A DNA stretch of 64,000 bases from an uncultured Alphaproteobacteria bacterium (GCA_944393235.1 CALXZJ010000001.1:14096-78095); one strand, 5' to 3'; counted from the stretch's first letter, positions 9,989 to 16,758 are shown. Program-made: numbers and translations. Notes: a model not told the origin generated them from the sequence alone.

Positions 9989-10062
9989 TATAAAAGTTCT
10001 TGCTTTTTGTACAAAAATACATATTATATAAAACATACAAACCAATTATTAAATTACGCATT

Positions 10063-10659
10063 ATGGACATTATGAATTTAAATGATGAAATAATCTTTCT
10101 ACAACGTAGAGGTTATGACGAAGAAAAAGTTCGTGAAATTTTGTTAAAAAAGTTACAGTTAGAACAACAAGAAGTAAACCTTCCGCAACCGGAAGCCTTG
10201 ACCTTGGCAAGACGGATACGTCCGATTATAAGTGTCAGAAATGAAGCGGCCATAGCCTCAGACGAACCTGAAAATGAATATAGTTTACCAATAAACGGCA
10301 AACCTTATGGTAAAAAATATTGGATTGATGGTTTAAAAATTCGCACCCAAAGCTATGTGCTCGGGAATCATCTGTCAAAGAAACAGTTGCTTTGTCCCGC
10401 ACACAAATTAACGCCGATAACAGAAATCGAAACTTACCATCGGTGCGGCTATTGGGCATTTCTTAAACCTTCGGTTTATGAGGTTTTATACCAAATCCCG
10501 GAAGTGTTGCGAGATAAAGTCTGTGCTTTTGAACTTTATGCCGATTCTGAAAACGGCTTAAGTTTATACGACATGGATCTAGGGCGGCATCGTCTGCATT
10601 GCATTCTCTACCAAGGAGAAATACCGTTTATTGTTTCCTGCCGTAAAATAGAATGGTAA
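10063..10659 (+). CDS. hypothetical protein
   Basis: 199-aa ORF with no recognisable motif. No RBS; start uncertain (10000 TTG or 10063 ATG). A terminator follows. Confidence 0.4.
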   Translation: MDIMNLNDEIIFLQRRGYDEEKVREILLKKLQLEQQEVNLPQPEALTLARRIRPIISVRNEAAIASDEPENEYSLPINGKPYGKKYWIDGLKIRTQSYVLGNHLSKKQLLCPAHKLTPITEIETYHRCGYWAFLKPSVYEVLYQIPEVLRDKVCAFELYADSENGLSLYDMDLGRHRLHCILYQGEIPFIVSCRKIEW

Positions 10660-10667
10660 TCTAATCA

Positions 10668-10690
10668 AACGCCCGCTTGGGCGTTTTTTT
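10668..10690 (+). terminator. rho-independent terminator
   Basis: ACGCCC/GGGCGT hairpin followed by T7. Confidence 0.55.
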
Positions 10691-10984: not shown

Positions 10985-11150
10985 AAATCCAAAACCAATA
11001 ATTTCAAAACCCCGTTCACCATAAAAGATGAGCGGGGTTTCATATTCAATAGCGGCAAAATTGTCGCTTGTTTTCCGTTGCTTAACCAAAATTTAAGCAA
11101 AAACCGCTAAACATAACACAACTGATCATATCTTTTCCTGAGGAGTCGCC

Positions 11151-14100
11151 ATGACCGTTCCATTTTTCAAAAAAGCAATCTGTTTGCTTTTAATGCCGCT
11201 GTTAATCATCAGCACGGCGATTCCGCCGGCAAGCGCTGCTTATAACAAACTTGCGCCCCATGATTTTTATGAAATGTATGCACTTGCCGCCAATGGCAAA
11301 ATTTCCAAATTAAGCAACGCCATCCACCGCGGTTTGGACATTGATGCCGTAAACCAAAACGGCGACACCGGTTTATGCGTTGCAGCCAAACAAAAAAATG
11401 CCAAAGCATACAACACCTTTCGGAACTTAGGCGCCAACCCCGCGCATCCTTGCACCCGGAACATTCCTCACTATCAGTCATTTGTCAATTCGCGTGCCGT
11501 GCAAGCCGGTGCTTTTTGGCAAGAAAGCAGCTATGCACCGCCGGCATACAACATGGAAAACTCCAGCTCCGACAAATGGAAACTCGCCGGCCTTTTATTA
11601 CTATTAGGCGGCGGAGCCGCAATCTTATTAAGCGGCGGCGGTGGTGGCGGCGGTAGCGATGATGAACCTGCTGAAAACCCGGGCTTGAGCTGCGAATACG
11701 GCTGCGCCGAAGAAGACGAAAACGGCAACTGCCTTGTCTGCAATGATGCCCCGGATCCTGCAGATCCCTGTGAAGAAGATCCGTGTGCGGAAGGTTGTTA
11801 TACCAATATTACCTGCGGTCCGGGTGAAACCTGCAGTCAGCAAAATGCTTGCGGCGGTTGTGAAGCATGTACGGCAACGGAAGAGCCTCCGGCCGAAGAA
11901 TGGGAGGAATTTGCCTTACAATTTTACATGTCTTCCAGCCACACAAGCTTTGAAAATGAAGAAGATATATATCATGAAAAGCCTGAAGATGTTTATGCCG
12001 AAATGGGGTATTGGGGGGGAATTAATGCTGGTCAGGGTTTTCTAACAAATACCGGAAACATAACTTTGACATCATCCGATAGTTTTTCCAGTACATGGGG
12101 GTTTGGGATTTTTAAAGGAAACTTCGACGACCGCTCTGATCTTTTAACCGATACAATGTGGAGTGCTGATTATGGTTTGACAAATTCCGGGGATATTACA
12201 ATTGATGCCCCTTCCGCTGCAACTTTGGGCATATTTACCCAAACACTTGGACAAATGGGGGATCGTGTCTTGGAGAAAATAGAATCTTTGGTAAATGAAG
12301 GAAAGATTACAATAACCGGAACCAACTCCAGCGGTATTATGCTTGTCGGCAACGGCAAACTTGACAATTCCGGTGCGATTAACATAAGCGGTCAGATGAA
12401 AAAGTCTAGACAGGGAGCTTTGTATAGTATGTATGGAACATATTCTACTCAAGCCGTTGTTGATGATAATTATATTTATCAATATGTTATGCCCACATTT
12501 CGCAATGCTGGTATATTTTTTGCCAACCATGACAGGGGGTATGGTATTGAATCGGTAATGAACAACAGCGTTACCAATTCCGGTGATATTACCTTAAATC
12601 TGGATAGTGATACCATAGATTTGGATACGCCTTTTGCGTCTGTCGGCGAAGATGAAGAGTTTCAAACCGCTGCCGGTATCAGCGTTGATTATTCGCCTCT
12701 AAATGAATATGACTTGTTAACGGTTTCAAATTCCGGCAATATTGATATTAATTTTACGTCCAGCCTGCTGGAAGAGAGTGAAGCTGATGCTGAGGCTATA
12801 TTTGCCGCACGGAAACGCTATTATATTGTCGGCTTAAATATTTCTTCTACAGAAGAAGGCAAAGATTTACTTAATGTTGAAAATACCGGAACTATATCTT
12901 TATCCGGTAATGGCTCAATGCATGGCATTGCTGCCAAAAATGCCGTTATTGAAAACAAAGGCAATATTTTTATTGATATGAACAGTCAAAAGTATGATGC
13001 CGAAACCCGTAATTTTGTATCTGTCGGTATACTGGCACAAGATTCTGTTATTAATCAATATGCCAATATTGACTATCAAATTTCCGGTGCCGGCGGTTCT
13101 TTTTATTCCGCGGCCATGTACAATAGTACCTTGAATGTCGGTCCTGATGCAAAAATTTCCGGCACCGTTGCTGCATATAACAGTACCGTTAATAATCTCG
13201 GAACAATTGAAGTGTCCGGGCAATCTGCAGATGAGAGTACTTACGGTCTTTGGCTGACCGGTGATTCCGGCGGCTATAATGAAGGGGTTATCCATGTTGA
13301 TGCATCCCAAAACGGTATTGGTGTTTATGCCGAACAAACAGAAACTGACGGTTTCGAAAACAAAGGTAGTATTATAGTTAATTCAACCAATGGCATCGGC
13401 ATGTATGCTAACAGCTATGAAGGCGGTATTCACGACCGTTATGTCAGACTTATCAACAGTGGTACGATTTCGGTTACCGGGGATAACAGTGTCGGTATGT
13501 ATGCCAACGGTGCCAATTCCGTTATTGTTAATACCGGAGAAATTATTGTTTCCGGCAATAACAGTCAGGAAACAGATACTGCGAATCGCGGTACATTTTC
13601 AGACGGCAGTAAAACAGAGGCACAGGCGTTCAGGCTTGTAAACGGTGCAGCGCTTTATAACCTTGGCACGCTGGAATCCGATGGTAATCTGGATTTTGAT
13701 GCTCTGACGGATAATCAAAGTAAAGTTATTGCTGGAAAAAGTTCTGTTATTAAGGCCGAAAGTGTTAACGGAACATTGTATGCAAGTGCAGATATTACCA
13801 CCGGCAGTAATGAGGATTATTATGAAAGCCGTGTGATTGAGGCAGAAGAAAACAATGCTACAGCAGCCTCCAACAGTGCCATGTTTGCTGCAGAAATGGC
13901 TGGCGATAAAATGGTCATGACGCGCTATGATTTTAATGAAATCGTAGCAGATAAAAATTTGGCGGCATATCTTGAGAATAATTATCAACAAGGTAACAGA
14001 GTTGATTTGTATGATACGTTTAAAGCTGCCCAAGATACTGAAGTTTTAAACAGCACAATCAGTTCTATGCTGGGAGCAGATTTTGTGCCGGCATTGGCGT

Positions 14101-14975
14101 ATCAGAATCTTGAGCGCGTACGTTATATTAACCGCACAATGGCGGATTTGATGCAGAACAATCAGTCCGATAAAGACGAACGCGTGAGTGTTATTTCCAA
14201 TAATTATTATCATGATATCAAAGCGCACGGCGGTGTCAGCGGTTATGAGGAAAAGCTGTTCGGTTTCAACGGCTTGTTTGATAAAAAAATTAATAATAAT
14301 TTTCGTTACGGCATTGGTTTGGGGCTTTACCGGGTAAATGTTGATTTTGATGACGGAATTGACCGCAATGATAATTTGTTTGAGGTTTATAATCCGTACT
14401 GGTTTGATTATGAACGCTGGGGCGCGCTTATTATGCCGTATGCCGGTTACAGCGACGGCGATTATGACCGCCGGGAAAATTCTAAAAAATACAGCGCGGA
14501 TTTAAAAGCCTGGTATTACGGCTTAAACAACCGTATTTACCTTAAAAATCAGGCTGCCGGTTTAGAAATCCGGCCGACGGCAGAATTAAACCTGAACGGC
14601 ATTTATCAGGATAATTTCAGCGAAGATGACGGGCTTTCGGTTAAAGGCAAAAATATGTTTTCAGCCGAGGCCGGGTTAGGCGCTTATGTTTCCAAGGCGG
14701 CGGATTTTGGCACCAAAGGCAAGCTCAACCTTAAAGCCGGCGCCATGTATTACTACGAGCTAAATGATGATGCCTACCAAAGCATTAATGCCCGTTTTGC
14801 CGGCATGAACGGCATGTATTATCTTGACGGATATGATAACCGCCGCAGCCGCGGCATTGTCAGCTTAAAAGCCAATTACCAATTCAAAGGTTGGAATTTG
14901 TATGCCGAAATCACACGCCTGCTTGAACATAACGACAATATGGTATATAATGCCGGCTTAAAGTACAGCTTTTAA
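11151..14975 (+). CDS. autotransporter outer-membrane protein with ankyrin-like repeats, Cys-rich module and repetitive passenger
   Basis: GAGGAG RBS. AxA signal peptide, 2 ankyrin-like repeats (NQNGDTGLCVAAKQKNAKAYNTFRNLGANP), hydrophobic/Gly segment, 14-Cys module. Passenger repeats of NSGDIT/NTGTISLSGN type. C-terminal amphipathic beta-strand region ends in the aromatic residue YSF. Confidence 0.8.
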   Translation: MTVPFFKKAICLLLMPLLIISTAIPPASAAYNKLAPHDFYEMYALAANGKISKLSNAIHRGLDIDAVNQNGDTGLCVAAKQKNAKAYNTFRNLGANPAHPCTRNIPHYQSFVNSRAVQAGAFWQESSYAPPAYNMENSSSDKWKLAGLLLLLGGGAAILLSGGGGGGGSDDEPAENPGLSCEYGCAEEDENGNCLVCNDAPDPADPCEEDPCAEGCYTNITCGPGETCSQQNACGGCEACTATEEPPAEEWEEFALQFYMSSSHTSFENEEDIYHEKPEDVYAEMGYWGGINAGQGFLTNTGNITLTSSDSFSSTWGFGIFKGNFDDRSDLLTDTMWSADYGLTNSGDITIDAPSAATLGIFTQTLGQMGDRVLEKIESLVNEGKITITGTNSSGIMLVGNGKLDNSGAINISGQMKKSRQGALYSMYGTYSTQAVVDDNYIYQYVMPTFRNAGIFFANHDRGYGIESVMNNSVTNSGDITLNLDSDTIDLDTPFASVGEDEEFQTAAGISVDYSPLNEYDLLTVSNSGNIDINFTSSLLEESEADAEAIFAARKRYYIVGLNISSTEEGKDLLNVENTGTISLSGNGSMHGIAAKNAVIENKGNIFIDMNSQKYDAETRNFVSVGILAQDSVINQYANIDYQISGAGGSFYSAAMYNSTLNVGPDAKISGTVAAYNSTVNNLGTIEVSGQSADESTYGLWLTGDSGGYNEGVIHVDASQNGIGVYAEQTETDGFENKGSIIVNSTNGIGMYANSYEGGIHDRYVRLINSGTISVTGDNSVGMYANGANSVIVNTGEIIVSGNNSQETDTANRGTFSDGSKTEAQAFRLVNGAALYNLGTLESDGNLDFDALTDNQSKVIAGKSSVIKAESVNGTLYASADITTGSNEDYYESRVIEAEENNATAASNSAMFAAEMAGDKMVMTRYDFNEIVADKNLAAYLENNYQQGNRVDLYDTFKAAQDTEVLNSTISSMLGADFVPALAYQNLERVRYINRTMADLMQNNQSDKDERVSVISNNYYHDIKAHGGVSGYEEKLFGFNGLFDKKINNNFRYGIGLGLYRVNVDFDDGIDRNDNLFEVYNPYWFDYERWGALIMPYAGYSDGDYDRRENSKKYSADLKAWYYGLNNRIYLKNQAAGLEIRPTAELNLNGIYQDNFSEDDGLSVKGKNMFSAEAGLGAYVSKAADFGTKGKLNLKAGAMYYYELNDDAYQSINARFAGMNGMYYLDGYDNRRSRGIVSLKANYQFKGWNLYAEITRLLEHNDNMVYNAGLKYSF

Positions 14976-14991: not shown

Positions 14992-16758
14992 TTGAACATA
15001 ACAAACAACAAACGGCTGACGGTATGGCAGTTTGTATGGAAATATGTTGTACAGGCAAAATATCAGCTGATTGCTTTTATCATAATTTTCTCATGTATGG
15101 CATTTATAATGCGGCTGCAAAACTATATTGCTGCTGAAATAATCGGCGTTGTTTCAAACACGGAAGCTTACCCGAACGTGGCGCAAACTTTGGCAAAATA
15201 TTTAGGCTTTATGCTGTTGGCGTTGTTCATTACTGCCGGAATTGAAATTATCCGACGCATTTTGGAAGCAAATTTCGTTCCGTTTGCCACGCTGAAAGTT
15301 TCCAAAGATTTGTTTATGATGGTACACAAACACTCCACCCGTTTTTTTGAAGAAGAGCTTTCCGGCAATATCTCCGGCAAAGTACGCAACATTATCAACA
15401 TGGTTGAACATTTTTATTTCAGTGTTTTGTTTGGTTTTTCTCTACCGATTATAGAAATTACCATGAGCCTTTGCTTTATCGGCACGGCTGATAAAAAACT
15501 GGCGTTGATTTTAGGCGGCGTCAACTTGTTCTTTTTGCTTATAGCAATTTATTTTCGCAAACAAGTCACCCCGTATACGGCAATGAAAGCCAAACTAAAC
15601 GCTGCCGCCAACGGCATTTTCGTAGACGGCGTCACCAACAGCCAACTGGTTAAAAGCTTTGCCAATTATTTTTACGAAAAGCGGCTTTATTTCAAAGCGG
15701 CGCGCGAAGCAGCCATCGCGCAAAGACGTGAGATGAACAAAGACATCTTTGTCCGCACGATTTCACAGTTTGTTTTTGATATATTAACAATTTTTTCATA
15801 CGCACTCATTCTTTATTTTTGGTATCGTTACAATTTAAGCATTGCCGATGTGGTGTTGTGCATTTCTTTGGTGCTCTCGCTGGTCGGCAACGTACGCGGC
15901 ATGAGTTATTATGCCAGCAATTTTGCCCAAGTTTACGGCACAATCCAAGACGGGCTTGATTTGTTGGCAACACCCAACGAGGTTGTGGACAAACCTGATG
16001 CTAAAATCTTAAAAATCAAAGAAAATCGTATTGATTATGATAAAATCACTTATCATTATAAAGATAGCAAACCGCTATTTAAAAATTTCAGCCTGCACAT
16101 TGCCCCGAACGAAAAAGTCGGTCTGGTCGGTCATTCCGGCAGCGGAAAATCAACCTTGATTAAACTTTTAAGCCGTTATTATGATTTACAAAAAGGTCAA
16201 ATCTTAATCAGCGGAAAAAACATTGCCGACGTTACACAGGAAAGTCTGCGTAAAAACATTGCCGTTATTCCGCAAGAAAGCACTTTATTTAACCGCACCA
16301 TCATGGAAAACATCCGTTACGGCAACCCCAAAGCCAGCGACAGACAAGTGATTGCCGCCGCCAAAAAAGCCTTTATTCATGATTTTATTATGAGCCTGCC
16401 CAACGGTTACCAAAGCAAAGTCGGCGAAAGAGGCGTCATGCTTTCCGGCGGCGAACGGCAGCGTATCGCCATTGCCCGGGCAATTTTGAAAAACGCCCCG
16501 ATTTTGATATTAGACGAAGCAACTTCGGCTTTAGACAGCGAAAGCGAACGCTATATCCAACGTTCACTCAAAAGTCTGATGCAAGGCAAAACCGTGATTG
16601 CCATTGCCCACCGGCTTTCCACCTTAAACGAAATGGATCGCTTGGTGGTCATGGACAAGGGCAAAATCGTCGAAACCGGCAAGCACCAAGAACTTTTGGC
16701 TAAAAAAGGCGCCTATTACAAATTTTATGAAATGCAAGCTTCCGGCTTTGAGCGATAA
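14992..16758 (+). CDS. ABC transporter, fused permease/ATP-binding protein (MsbA-like exporter)
   Basis: 6 TM N-terminal region. Walker A GHSGSGKST, signature LSGGERQRIAIARA, Walker B ILILDEATSALD. TTG start with AAGGAG RBS, 17 nt after the autotransporter stop. Confidence 0.85.
   Translation: MNITNNKRLTVWQFVWKYVVQAKYQLIAFIIIFSCMAFIMRLQNYIAAEIIGVVSNTEAYPNVAQTLAKYLGFMLLALFITAGIEIIRRILEANFVPFATLKVSKDLFMMVHKHSTRFFEEELSGNISGKVRNIINMVEHFYFSVLFGFSLPIIEITMSLCFIGTADKKLALILGGVNLFFLLIAIYFRKQVTPYTAMKAKLNAAANGIFVDGVTNSQLVKSFANYFYEKRLYFKAAREAAIAQRREMNKDIFVRTISQFVFDILTIFSYALILYFWYRYNLSIADVVLCISLVLSLVGNVRGMSYYASNFAQVYGTIQDGLDLLATPNEVVDKPDAKILKIKENRIDYDKITYHYKDSKPLFKNFSLHIAPNEKVGLVGHSGSGKSTLIKLLSRYYDLQKGQILISGKNIADVTQESLRKNIAVIPQESTLFNRTIMENIRYGNPKASDRQVIAAAKKAFIHDFIMSLPNGYQSKVGERGVMLSGGERQRIAIARAILKNAPILILDEATSALDSESERYIQRSLKSLMQGKTVIAIAHRLSTLNEMDRLVVMDKGKIVETGKHQELLAKKGAYYKFYEMQASGFER

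Follow-up and report, generated by a model that had tools for sequence, protein, structure and literature searches.

No system for surface display is simpler, or has been engineered more widely, than the autotransporters, and by their accepted rule whatever precedes the barrel in the chain goes outside; in type Va proteins all of this sequence is, by default, passenger that ends up outside the cell. Extra hydrophobic elements near the N terminus are known in several of them. In autotransporters with an extended signal peptide region (ESPR; EspP and Hbp) and in lipoprotein autotransporters (NalP and SphB1), such an element is thought to affect timing or anchoring, and the N-terminal Gly-rich hydrophobic segment of Helicobacter pylori VacA inserts into target membranes. 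Here we analyse a stretch of 64,000 nucleotides from an uncultured Alphaproteobacteria bacterium (GCA_944393235.1 CALXZJ010000001.1:14096-78095), hereafter the window, in which an open reading frame (ORF) at 11151..14975 on the plus strand encodes a protein of 1,274 amino acids from an ATG start. This gene almost certainly encodes an intact BigA-like type Va autotransporter with an N-terminal module, made of an ankyrin domain and a hydrophobic segment running into poly-Gly, that defines its family. The protein resembles BigA-type autotransporters (Salmonella BigA) in its 12-stranded C-terminal barrel, pore helix, terminal Phe, acidic repeat passenger and shared Pfam families, but adds the ankyrin domain and the hydrophobic/poly-Gly segment; Salmonella BigA's own N terminus lies outside this comparison. 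Among the BigA-type and other type Va proteins described in the literature we found none with an ankyrin domain and a hydrophobic/poly-Gly segment between signal peptide and passenger. A first interpretation made from the DNA alone, here called the sequence-only reading, had considered the topology possibly novel, and the lack of a published description of the architecture agrees with it.

The same reading took the protein for a classical autotransporter with a C-terminal barrel, and this holds. Hidden Markov model (HMM) searches matched autotransporter β-domain models: PF03797 covered residues 1023–1254 (E 5.2e-20; 72.7 bits versus a cut-off of 26) and was the sole Pfam match in the window protein at E<=1, with no LysM match either; NCBIfam gave no match. 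Foldseek searches with a homologous barrel recovered known type Va barrels, namely those of EstA, AaaA, NalP (TMt 0.79-0.80), EspP, Hbp, BrkA and AIDA-I. The window protein ends in KYSF and thus has the C-terminal aromatic β-signal. A pore-spanning linker helix begins at F978 (nucleotide 14082; FVPALAYQNLERVRYINRTMADLMQ), and the equivalent helix of family member P0184, a natural minimal homologue, occupies residues 237–260. In the AlphaFold2 model of P0184 the ankyrin domain, the pore helix and the barrel all have a predicted local distance difference test (pLDDT) score above 90. Assignment to the BigA family rests on precomputed Pfam annotation of homologues, including P0001 (98% identical to the window protein), and not on the window protein's own score: BigA_3rd (PF27417) is annotated on P0001 and most homologues, and the Pfam names on homologue contigs are PF27417 BigA_3rd, PF27415 BigA_4th and PF25783 BigA_beta. 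The layout is not that of an inverse (type Ve) autotransporter, as the barrel is C-terminal and LysM is not matched.

The N terminus of the protein reads MTVPFFKK-AICLLLMPLLIISTAIPP-ASA|AY, and residues 1–29 look like a textbook Sec-type signal peptide, judged by rule only (n-region, core and AxA site). The AxA cleavage site, mostly AQA|Y, is conserved across an alignment of 36 family N termini (alignment A1). The window protein has no twin-arginine (Tat RR) motif, no lipobox Cys after either hydrophobic stretch and no match to the ESPR motif (Pfam, E<=1); it thus differs from the ESPR and lipoprotein autotransporters and, unlike them, carries a folded domain between its two hydrophobic stretches.

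That domain was detected through the family. Pfam Ank found nothing in the window protein, not even when the isolated N terminus was searched at E<=10, and the score in P0063 was below threshold (16.9 versus 27.3 bits). A profile built on A1 matched ankyrin-repeat proteins in the PDB with E values from 1.7e-34 to 1e-11 over profile positions ~39–98, which correspond to two repeats; among these matches were ankyrin-1/2 (1.7e-34), designed ANK proteins of 169 amino acids (2e-21) and Bdellovibrio Bd3460 (5cea; 3.9e-12), with i-E-values of ~2e-3 for a single repeat pair. AlphaFold2 run on A1 gave pLDDT >90 for residues 40–120, with helix pairs at 39–47/51–59 and 74–80/84–92 followed by three short capping helices. 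When the PDB was searched with Foldseek, the top matches were all ankyrin or DARPin proteins (probability 1.0, E ~1e-2). Profile, model and structural comparison thus agree with the sequence-only claim of ankyrin-like repeats behind a cleavable-looking AxA signal peptide, and residues 30–120 are predicted to adopt a two-repeat ankyrin fold. Bd3460 likewise has a short ankyrin-repeat domain exported by a signal peptide, but it is a free-standing soluble protein without a barrel, a hydrophobic/poly-Gly segment or a Cys pair replacing the TPLH histidine. The linker that follows the domain in the window protein, residues 121–142, is nearly absent from P0043.

Eight residues of the ankyrin domain are invariant across the family: Y43, A46, G71, T73, C76, G94, A95 and C101. 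The TPLH motif retains T73, its histidine position is taken by C76, and C101 falls where a further repeat would have its position 1. We infer that C76 and C101 are joined in a structural disulfide, by which the fold is suited to an oxidising compartment. Because the signal peptide is conserved in its n-region, hydrophobic core and AxA site and the two cysteines are invariant, the sequences point to an extracytoplasmic ankyrin domain. The comparison drawn earlier with ankyrin domains that act in the host cytosol is therefore inapplicable.

The second hydrophobic stretch and the seven glycines after it lie where they had been described: W143–S161 (WKLAGLLLLLGGGAAILLS) is directly followed by G162–G168. 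Nearly all homologues have this second segment, at about residues 130–165, as well as a signal peptide at about residues 5–28. When 90 unique segments were aligned at the poly-Gly, they showed a Trp-rich N-terminal edge (aromatics up to 48%), a core of ~15 residues of which about half are Gly or Ala, a central GG(G) and a Ser at position -1. GxxxGxxxG occurred in 0/90, and four-fold small-xxx-small runs in 32/90 versus 27/90 in shuffles; small-residue spacing is no more than composition predicts, and the canonical motif of a transmembrane glycine zipper is absent. The segment recalls that of VacA, as a lead only, in being a Gly/Ala-rich hydrophobic stretch near the N terminus of an autotransporter passenger, β-helical in VacA and presumed so here. 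The VacA segment differs in lying at the mature N terminus and in having tandem GxxxG, whereas here a 110-residue ankyrin domain precedes the segment and the motif is absent.

Hydrophobicity of the segment is marginal, the best 17-mer summing on the Hessa scale to -0.87 kcal/mol in the window protein with a family median of +1.2. Across the family the mean net charge of the 25 residues after the segment is -2.4, and that before it is ~0. We infer from these sequences that the segment would let transfer through the inner membrane continue and that the whole precursor would reach the periplasm, because a marginally hydrophobic stretch is followed by Gly and acidic residues, not basic ones, and because a stop would strand the Cys/EGF-type (epidermal growth factor-type) modules and the β-barrel in the cytoplasm, where they are nonfunctional. 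An internal start was considered and rejected, as a Met before the segment occurs in three sequences but is not conserved in A1. The poly-Gly is encoded by mixed GGC/GGT codons, which argues for selection at the protein level; together with a weak Tandem Repeats Finder score (30), this rules out a slippage repeat or phase-variation tract. The AlphaFold2 model of P0184, based on a 50-sequence alignment, gives the segment and linker a pLDDT of ~30-35 and no placement relative to the barrel.

Beyond the poly-Gly lies a Cys-rich module, of which the sequence-only reading had counted 14 cysteines in 70 residues. Its extracellular-type character stands; the count does not, there being 12 in 60 residues (181–240), and the module is optional and varies in copy number. 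Outside the module, the only cysteines are the signal-peptide residue C11 and the ankyrin pair C76/C101, with none in residues 241–1274. The module consists of a CX3CX8CX2C unit and one eight-Cys unit, C-x4-C-x3-C-x5-C-x5-C-x5-C-x2-C-x2-C. Close relatives carry one to three copies of the eight-Cys unit; elsewhere it is absent or EGF-type modules fill that slot, and some family members have no Cys other than the ankyrin pair. The eight-Cys unit has no relative in Pfam or the PDB, and the module of the window protein matched none of the EGF-family models. Reading its CxxCxxC end as an Fe-S site or zinc finger yielded chance-level matches only (PsaC, E 0.17; zf-CXXC, E 1.4). Eukaryote-type EGF modules stand straight after the poly-Gly in some members, P0043, P0063, P0025 and P0089, with up to 76 cysteines; laminin EGF in P0063 scores 24.8 bits versus a gathering threshold of 21, and the teneurin-type EGF match in P0043 is weak. 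The order of ANK, hydrophobic segment and EGF recalls eukaryotic type I receptors such as Notch, but reversed.

The passenger is made of degenerate repeats, as had been noted: 16 NxGx[IVLF] motifs lie between residues 300 and 837 at distances of ~24-51 residues, from which it is presumed to be a β-helix; it has no sequence match in the PDB. This part of the protein is hypervariable, and its length in the family ranges from zero to ~2000 residues. The passenger is also acidic, with a family median isoelectric point (pI) of 4.45, never above 6.0, and a charge of -21 over the first 80 residues past the poly-Gly in the window protein. The ankyrin domain is basic (family median pI 9.1, net +3; window protein pI 9.5, net +5), and the sign of the charge switches exactly at the hydrophobic segment. 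Only 1% of 95-residue passenger windows reach a net charge of at least +3, and in 70 of 117 proteins no stretch ahead of the barrel is more basic than the ankyrin domain. According to published work, a disordered passenger depends critically on acidic residues to be secreted by an autotransporter, and acidity prevails among natural passengers (PMC4174580).

A search with the full-length protein returned 98 relatives of 900-2200 residues, almost all from metagenome-assembled genomes (MAGs) of Alphaproteobacteria. Close relatives came from three MAGs labelled uncultured Alphaproteobacteria bacterium (single-protein scan), and the exact window protein is present in two further assemblies. An HMM search of 1.84 billion representatives gave 630 proteins at E<=1e-30, many of them generic multi-ankyrin proteins. 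Among the 139 matches that were fetched, 41 had the complete module at residues 1–170. Of these, 32 are complete proteins, and each has the family barrel (E 1e-70 to 1e-115) as well as a C-terminal Phe; none of the generic ankyrin proteins among the fetched matches has that barrel. Altogether 136 N-terminal modules were found, each at the N terminus of the same protein type. The first 170 residues are thus not encoded apart in any of these homologues, and a fusion artefact is rejected. A search with the barrel alone, pre-filtered by word index, gave minimal forms only.

The family is defined by its N-terminal module: a Sec signal, a two-repeat ankyrin domain with two invariant cysteines, a Trp-capped Gly/Ala hydrophobic segment and poly-Gly. 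Past the module come a place that may or may not hold Cys-rich or EGF-like modules, the acidic repeat passenger and a 12-stranded barrel. Compared with distant homologues, identity is 46-56% in the ankyrin domain, 25-33% in the barrel and 21-30% in the passenger. The idea that an ankyrin and Cys-rich N terminus is a lineage-specific fusion did not survive this survey, since the ankyrin and hydrophobic/poly-Gly module is the most conserved and the family-defining feature.

Alleles at the same locus differ widely in size: 1,274 residues in the window, 1,743 in L001:5995-11226, ~1830 in L002:2307-7787 and 532 in L003:5491-7089 (P0184). In the window, L001 and L003 the locus lies between the genes for aspartyl-tRNA synthetase (AspRS) and an ATP-binding cassette (ABC) exporter. 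The 532-residue allele, found in one MAG at this locus between AspRS and ABC genes, lacks a passenger and consists of signal peptide, ankyrin domain, hydrophobic/Gly segment, an acidic Ser/Thr-rich linker of ~65 residues and barrel, and nothing else. Such minimal alleles (520-532 residues) fall into at least four clusters at 90% identity; between clusters they share 74-89% identity, all reading frames are intact, and one cluster has 14 members from many samples. Because intact minimal forms persist in at least four clusters, module and barrel are a maintained functional unit and the passenger is an exchangeable cassette. Among alleles whose N-terminal module is 98-100% identical over the first 168 residues, identity in residues 251–600 is 29-75%. 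As it falls to 29% beside such constancy, the sequences point to replacement of the passenger by recombination, with the N-terminal module and the barrel as constant flanks. The family is abundant in gut and rumen-type metagenomes. P0091 (1,132 residues) heads a 90%-identity cluster of 1,496 near-identical sequences on many long contigs, the largest of 402 kb; judging from this, both the protein and its host organism are very frequent in the gut-type metagenomes sampled.

Where the N-terminal module ends up can be read in several ways. We tentatively favour surface display of the whole N terminus as the distal head of a BigA-like adhesin, the leading reading although short of probable. In this scheme the very hydrophobic signal peptide would drive Sec export and be cut at ASA|A, the second hydrophobic segment would not arrest transfer at the inner membrane and the full chain would arrive in the periplasm. 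The β-barrel assembly machinery (BAM) would then insert the barrel, and the acidic passenger would be threaded outward from C terminus to N terminus. Last out, the N-terminal module would become a membrane-distal adhesin head, with a basic, disulfide-stapled ankyrin binding domain beside the Cys-rich modules. The Gly/Ala-rich segment may be a membrane-inserting or self-associating element, fusion-peptide-like or VacA-like, or alternatively may fold back onto the bacterium's own outer membrane, and passenger-less alleles would show the same head on a short acidic tether. Surface display is favoured because the type Va default puts everything N-terminal of the barrel outside. Export to the surface is also favoured because acidic passengers and linkers, here with a family median passenger pI of 4.45, suit outer-membrane translocation (PMC4174580). 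Several observations weigh on the other side. A distal head is expected to be variable, yet conservation in the protein peaks in the ankyrin domain (46-56% identity versus 25-33% for the barrel; diversity 0.4% among alleles), and a basic ankyrin domain next to an acidic remainder, with the flip exactly at the segment, looks like two compartments. These charge and conservation data cast doubt on surface exposure for residues 30–161 alone. A domain that is basic, folds fast and is locked by a disulfide makes poor cargo for an autotransporter. Surface display gives no compelling role to an invariant hydrophobic segment in contact with water, the canonical glycine-zipper motif is absent from the 90 unique segments, and AlphaFold2 offers no placement for the segment at its pLDDT of ~30-35. 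These points are accommodated by programmed secretion arrest, which we regard as possible but doubtful. The ankyrin domain would fold, become disulfide-locked and stay periplasmic, and the hydrophobic/poly-Gly segment would form a second crossing of the outer membrane: C-to-N translocation would halt at the segment, which would be laterally released from the BamA-barrel hybrid or threaded beside the linker. The acidic Cys-rich modules and passenger would then form a loop at the surface with an anchor at each end, the basic ankyrin domain would sit at the inner leaflet and bind a conserved periplasmic partner (cell wall, assembly machinery or itself), and passenger-less alleles would be outer-membrane-anchored periplasmic ankyrin proteins. 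Such an arrest would fit the conservation of the ankyrin domain beyond that of the barrel, the invariance of C76/C101 and the charge flip at the segment (ankyrin pI 9.1, net +3; passenger pI 4.45, never above 6.0). It would also fit the Trp cluster at the N-terminal edge of a hydrophobic core of ~15-19 residues, a length that would suit the thin outer membrane, and the poly-Gly as the thinnest possible chain; the extracellular-type EGF/Cys modules always lie beyond the segment, and minimal alleles retain exactly module, linker and barrel. Periplasmic ankyrin proteins exist, Bd3460 among them. Yet the hydrophobicity of the segment is marginal, its outer flank is acidic and would face lipopolysaccharide, the AlphaFold2 model shows no contact or placement, and the ankyrin Cys pair need not block export, since the pathway evidently accepts cargo as rich in Cys as the Cys-rich modules. 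We know of no type Va protein with a periplasmic N-terminal domain or an α-helical crossing of the outer membrane. Type Ve proteins (intimin and invasin, with periplasmic LysM) also have, behind the signal peptide, a small conserved N-terminal domain, which would be periplasmic in both if arrest occurs here, but in them the periplasmic domain is followed by the barrel and then by the passenger; here the passenger sits between the N-terminal domain and the barrel, and periplasmic retention would for that reason need a second membrane crossing. The sole precedent for such a topology within type V secretion is CdiA/CdiB (type Vb), in which the passenger is partly exported and the C-terminal half of CdiA is held periplasmic by programmed arrest (PMC9086364); that system is two-partner, retains the C-terminal half through its YP domain and has no sequence relationship to the window protein.

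A further reading, which we consider improbable, makes the module an aid to biogenesis that works during export and at no other time, a functional counterpart of the extended signal peptides of large autotransporters, though oversized. Unusual signal peptides tether EspP/Hbp-type autotransporters transiently at the inner membrane, and here the N terminus could be held for a time at the periplasmic face of that membrane or on a chaperone, so that a long passenger is kept unfolded until the barrel has been assembled; the module would later be displayed passively or clipped, for example within the poly-Gly. The highly conserved module is indeed coupled to the barrel and not to a particular passenger, and the segment has a signal-peptide-like grammar, mildly basic before, then a hydrophobic core and small residues, and acidic after. 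Passenger-less alleles, however, keep the module without a long passenger to protect, a folded ankyrin domain with invariant surface residues exceeds the needs of a tether, there is no ESPR motif, and no normal transmembrane helix can have both of its flanks in the periplasm, as the segment would here. Scarcely credible, finally, is an artefact or dead end, in which a frameshift or an assembly error joined the first 170 residues to an autotransporter, or the segment truly stops transfer and anchors the protein in the inner membrane, leaving the remainder cytoplasmic. Two hydrophobic segments in one precursor do look at first like a signal peptide and a membrane anchor. Against fusion stand a continuous architecture in >130 proteins from many independent assemblies, down to ~25% barrel identity, the recovery of the exact window protein in two further assemblies and the lack of a conserved Met before the segment, which leaves no internal start; the homologue survey effectively refutes it. 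A stop-transfer anchor would leave the EGF/Cys modules and the β-barrel in the cytoplasm, and the acidic downstream flank contradicts the positive-inside rule.

Table 1. Elements of the autotransporter gene and its upstream region, with window positions and, where available, amino-acid diversity among five window-type alleles.
Feature	Position	Strand	Description	Amino-acid diversity
Intrinsic-terminator-like hairpin of the upstream gene	10667..10686	+	8-bp stem, 5 GC pairs, then T-run	
Shine-Dalgarno sequence GAGGAG	11141..11146	+	5 nt ahead of ATG; read from sequence	
Putative signal peptide, residues 1–29	11151..11237	+	KK n-region, hydrophobic core, A27-S28-A29|A30 site	
Predicted ankyrin domain, residues 30–120	11238..11510	+	two ANK repeats (~residues 39–98) and helical cap	0.4%
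Variable linker, residues 121–142	11511..11576	+	AlphaFold2 pLDDT <50 for residues 127–139; length differs within A1	
Hydrophobic segment W143–S161 and poly-Gly G162–G168	11577..11654	+	Trp-capped, Gly/Ala-rich	0%
Acidic segment with Cys-rich module	11655..11900	+	12 Cys at residues 181–240 (11691-11870)	10% (Cys module)
Acidic passenger, residues 251–960	11901..14030	+	16 NxGx[IVLF] repeats; presumed β-helix	18-40%
Pre-barrel junction, residues 961–1022	14031..14216	+	includes pore-spanning linker helix	
Type Va autotransporter β-barrel, residues 1023–1274	14217..14972	+	12-stranded; PF03797; C-terminal ...KYSF	11%
Stop codon of the autotransporter gene	14973..14975	+		

The start codon of the gene is unambiguous because an upstream stop codon sits just three sense codons before the ATG. 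An ORF of 219 amino acids without a Pfam family (10000-10659, plus strand, TTG start as listed) lies upstream and is followed by the strong terminator hairpin listed in Table 1. The hairpin sets off the autotransporter gene in a transcription unit separate from that of this ORF. The idea of a regulatory RNA in the 460-nucleotide leader between the two was dropped, as nothing in Rfam approached gathering scores. Seventeen nucleotides past the autotransporter stop codon begins an ABC exporter gene (14992-16758, plus strand; 588 amino acids, ABC_membrane and ABC_tran), and there is no terminator in the interval. The exporter is probably co-transcribed with the autotransporter gene and not a dedicated partner: its synteny is kept in the close relatives L001 and L003, and because the neighbourhoods of distant homologues are unrelated, it reflects close relatedness rather than partnership. 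Tandem paralogues were found neither in the window nor in seven loci. Directly downstream of family member P0024, an ORF of 124 amino acids with faint EF-hand matches is present (L005:16301-16675 and L006:14689-15063), and a LolCE-like ABC pair lies directly upstream of it; neither the pair nor the 124-residue ORF was seen beside other members.

The family is large and undescribed in the literature, and it is categorically new only if the ankyrin domain is retained. Its most conserved element is a basic ankyrin domain, neither barrel nor adhesin, that is parted from an acidic passenger by a hydrophobic/poly-Gly segment, and passenger-less alleles naturally reduce the system to module, tether and barrel. 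If the module is displayed, as we tentatively favour, this would be the first ankyrin-headed autotransporter adhesin, with eukaryote-like ANK and EGF-type modules adjoining. A new topological class of type V secretion, with a periplasmic basic ankyrin domain, the segment as an outer-membrane stop-transfer and the passenger as a doubly anchored surface loop, is less likely, though still conceivable; if the domain is indeed retained, type Va secretion can be stopped deliberately and a non-barrel segment can cross the outer membrane.

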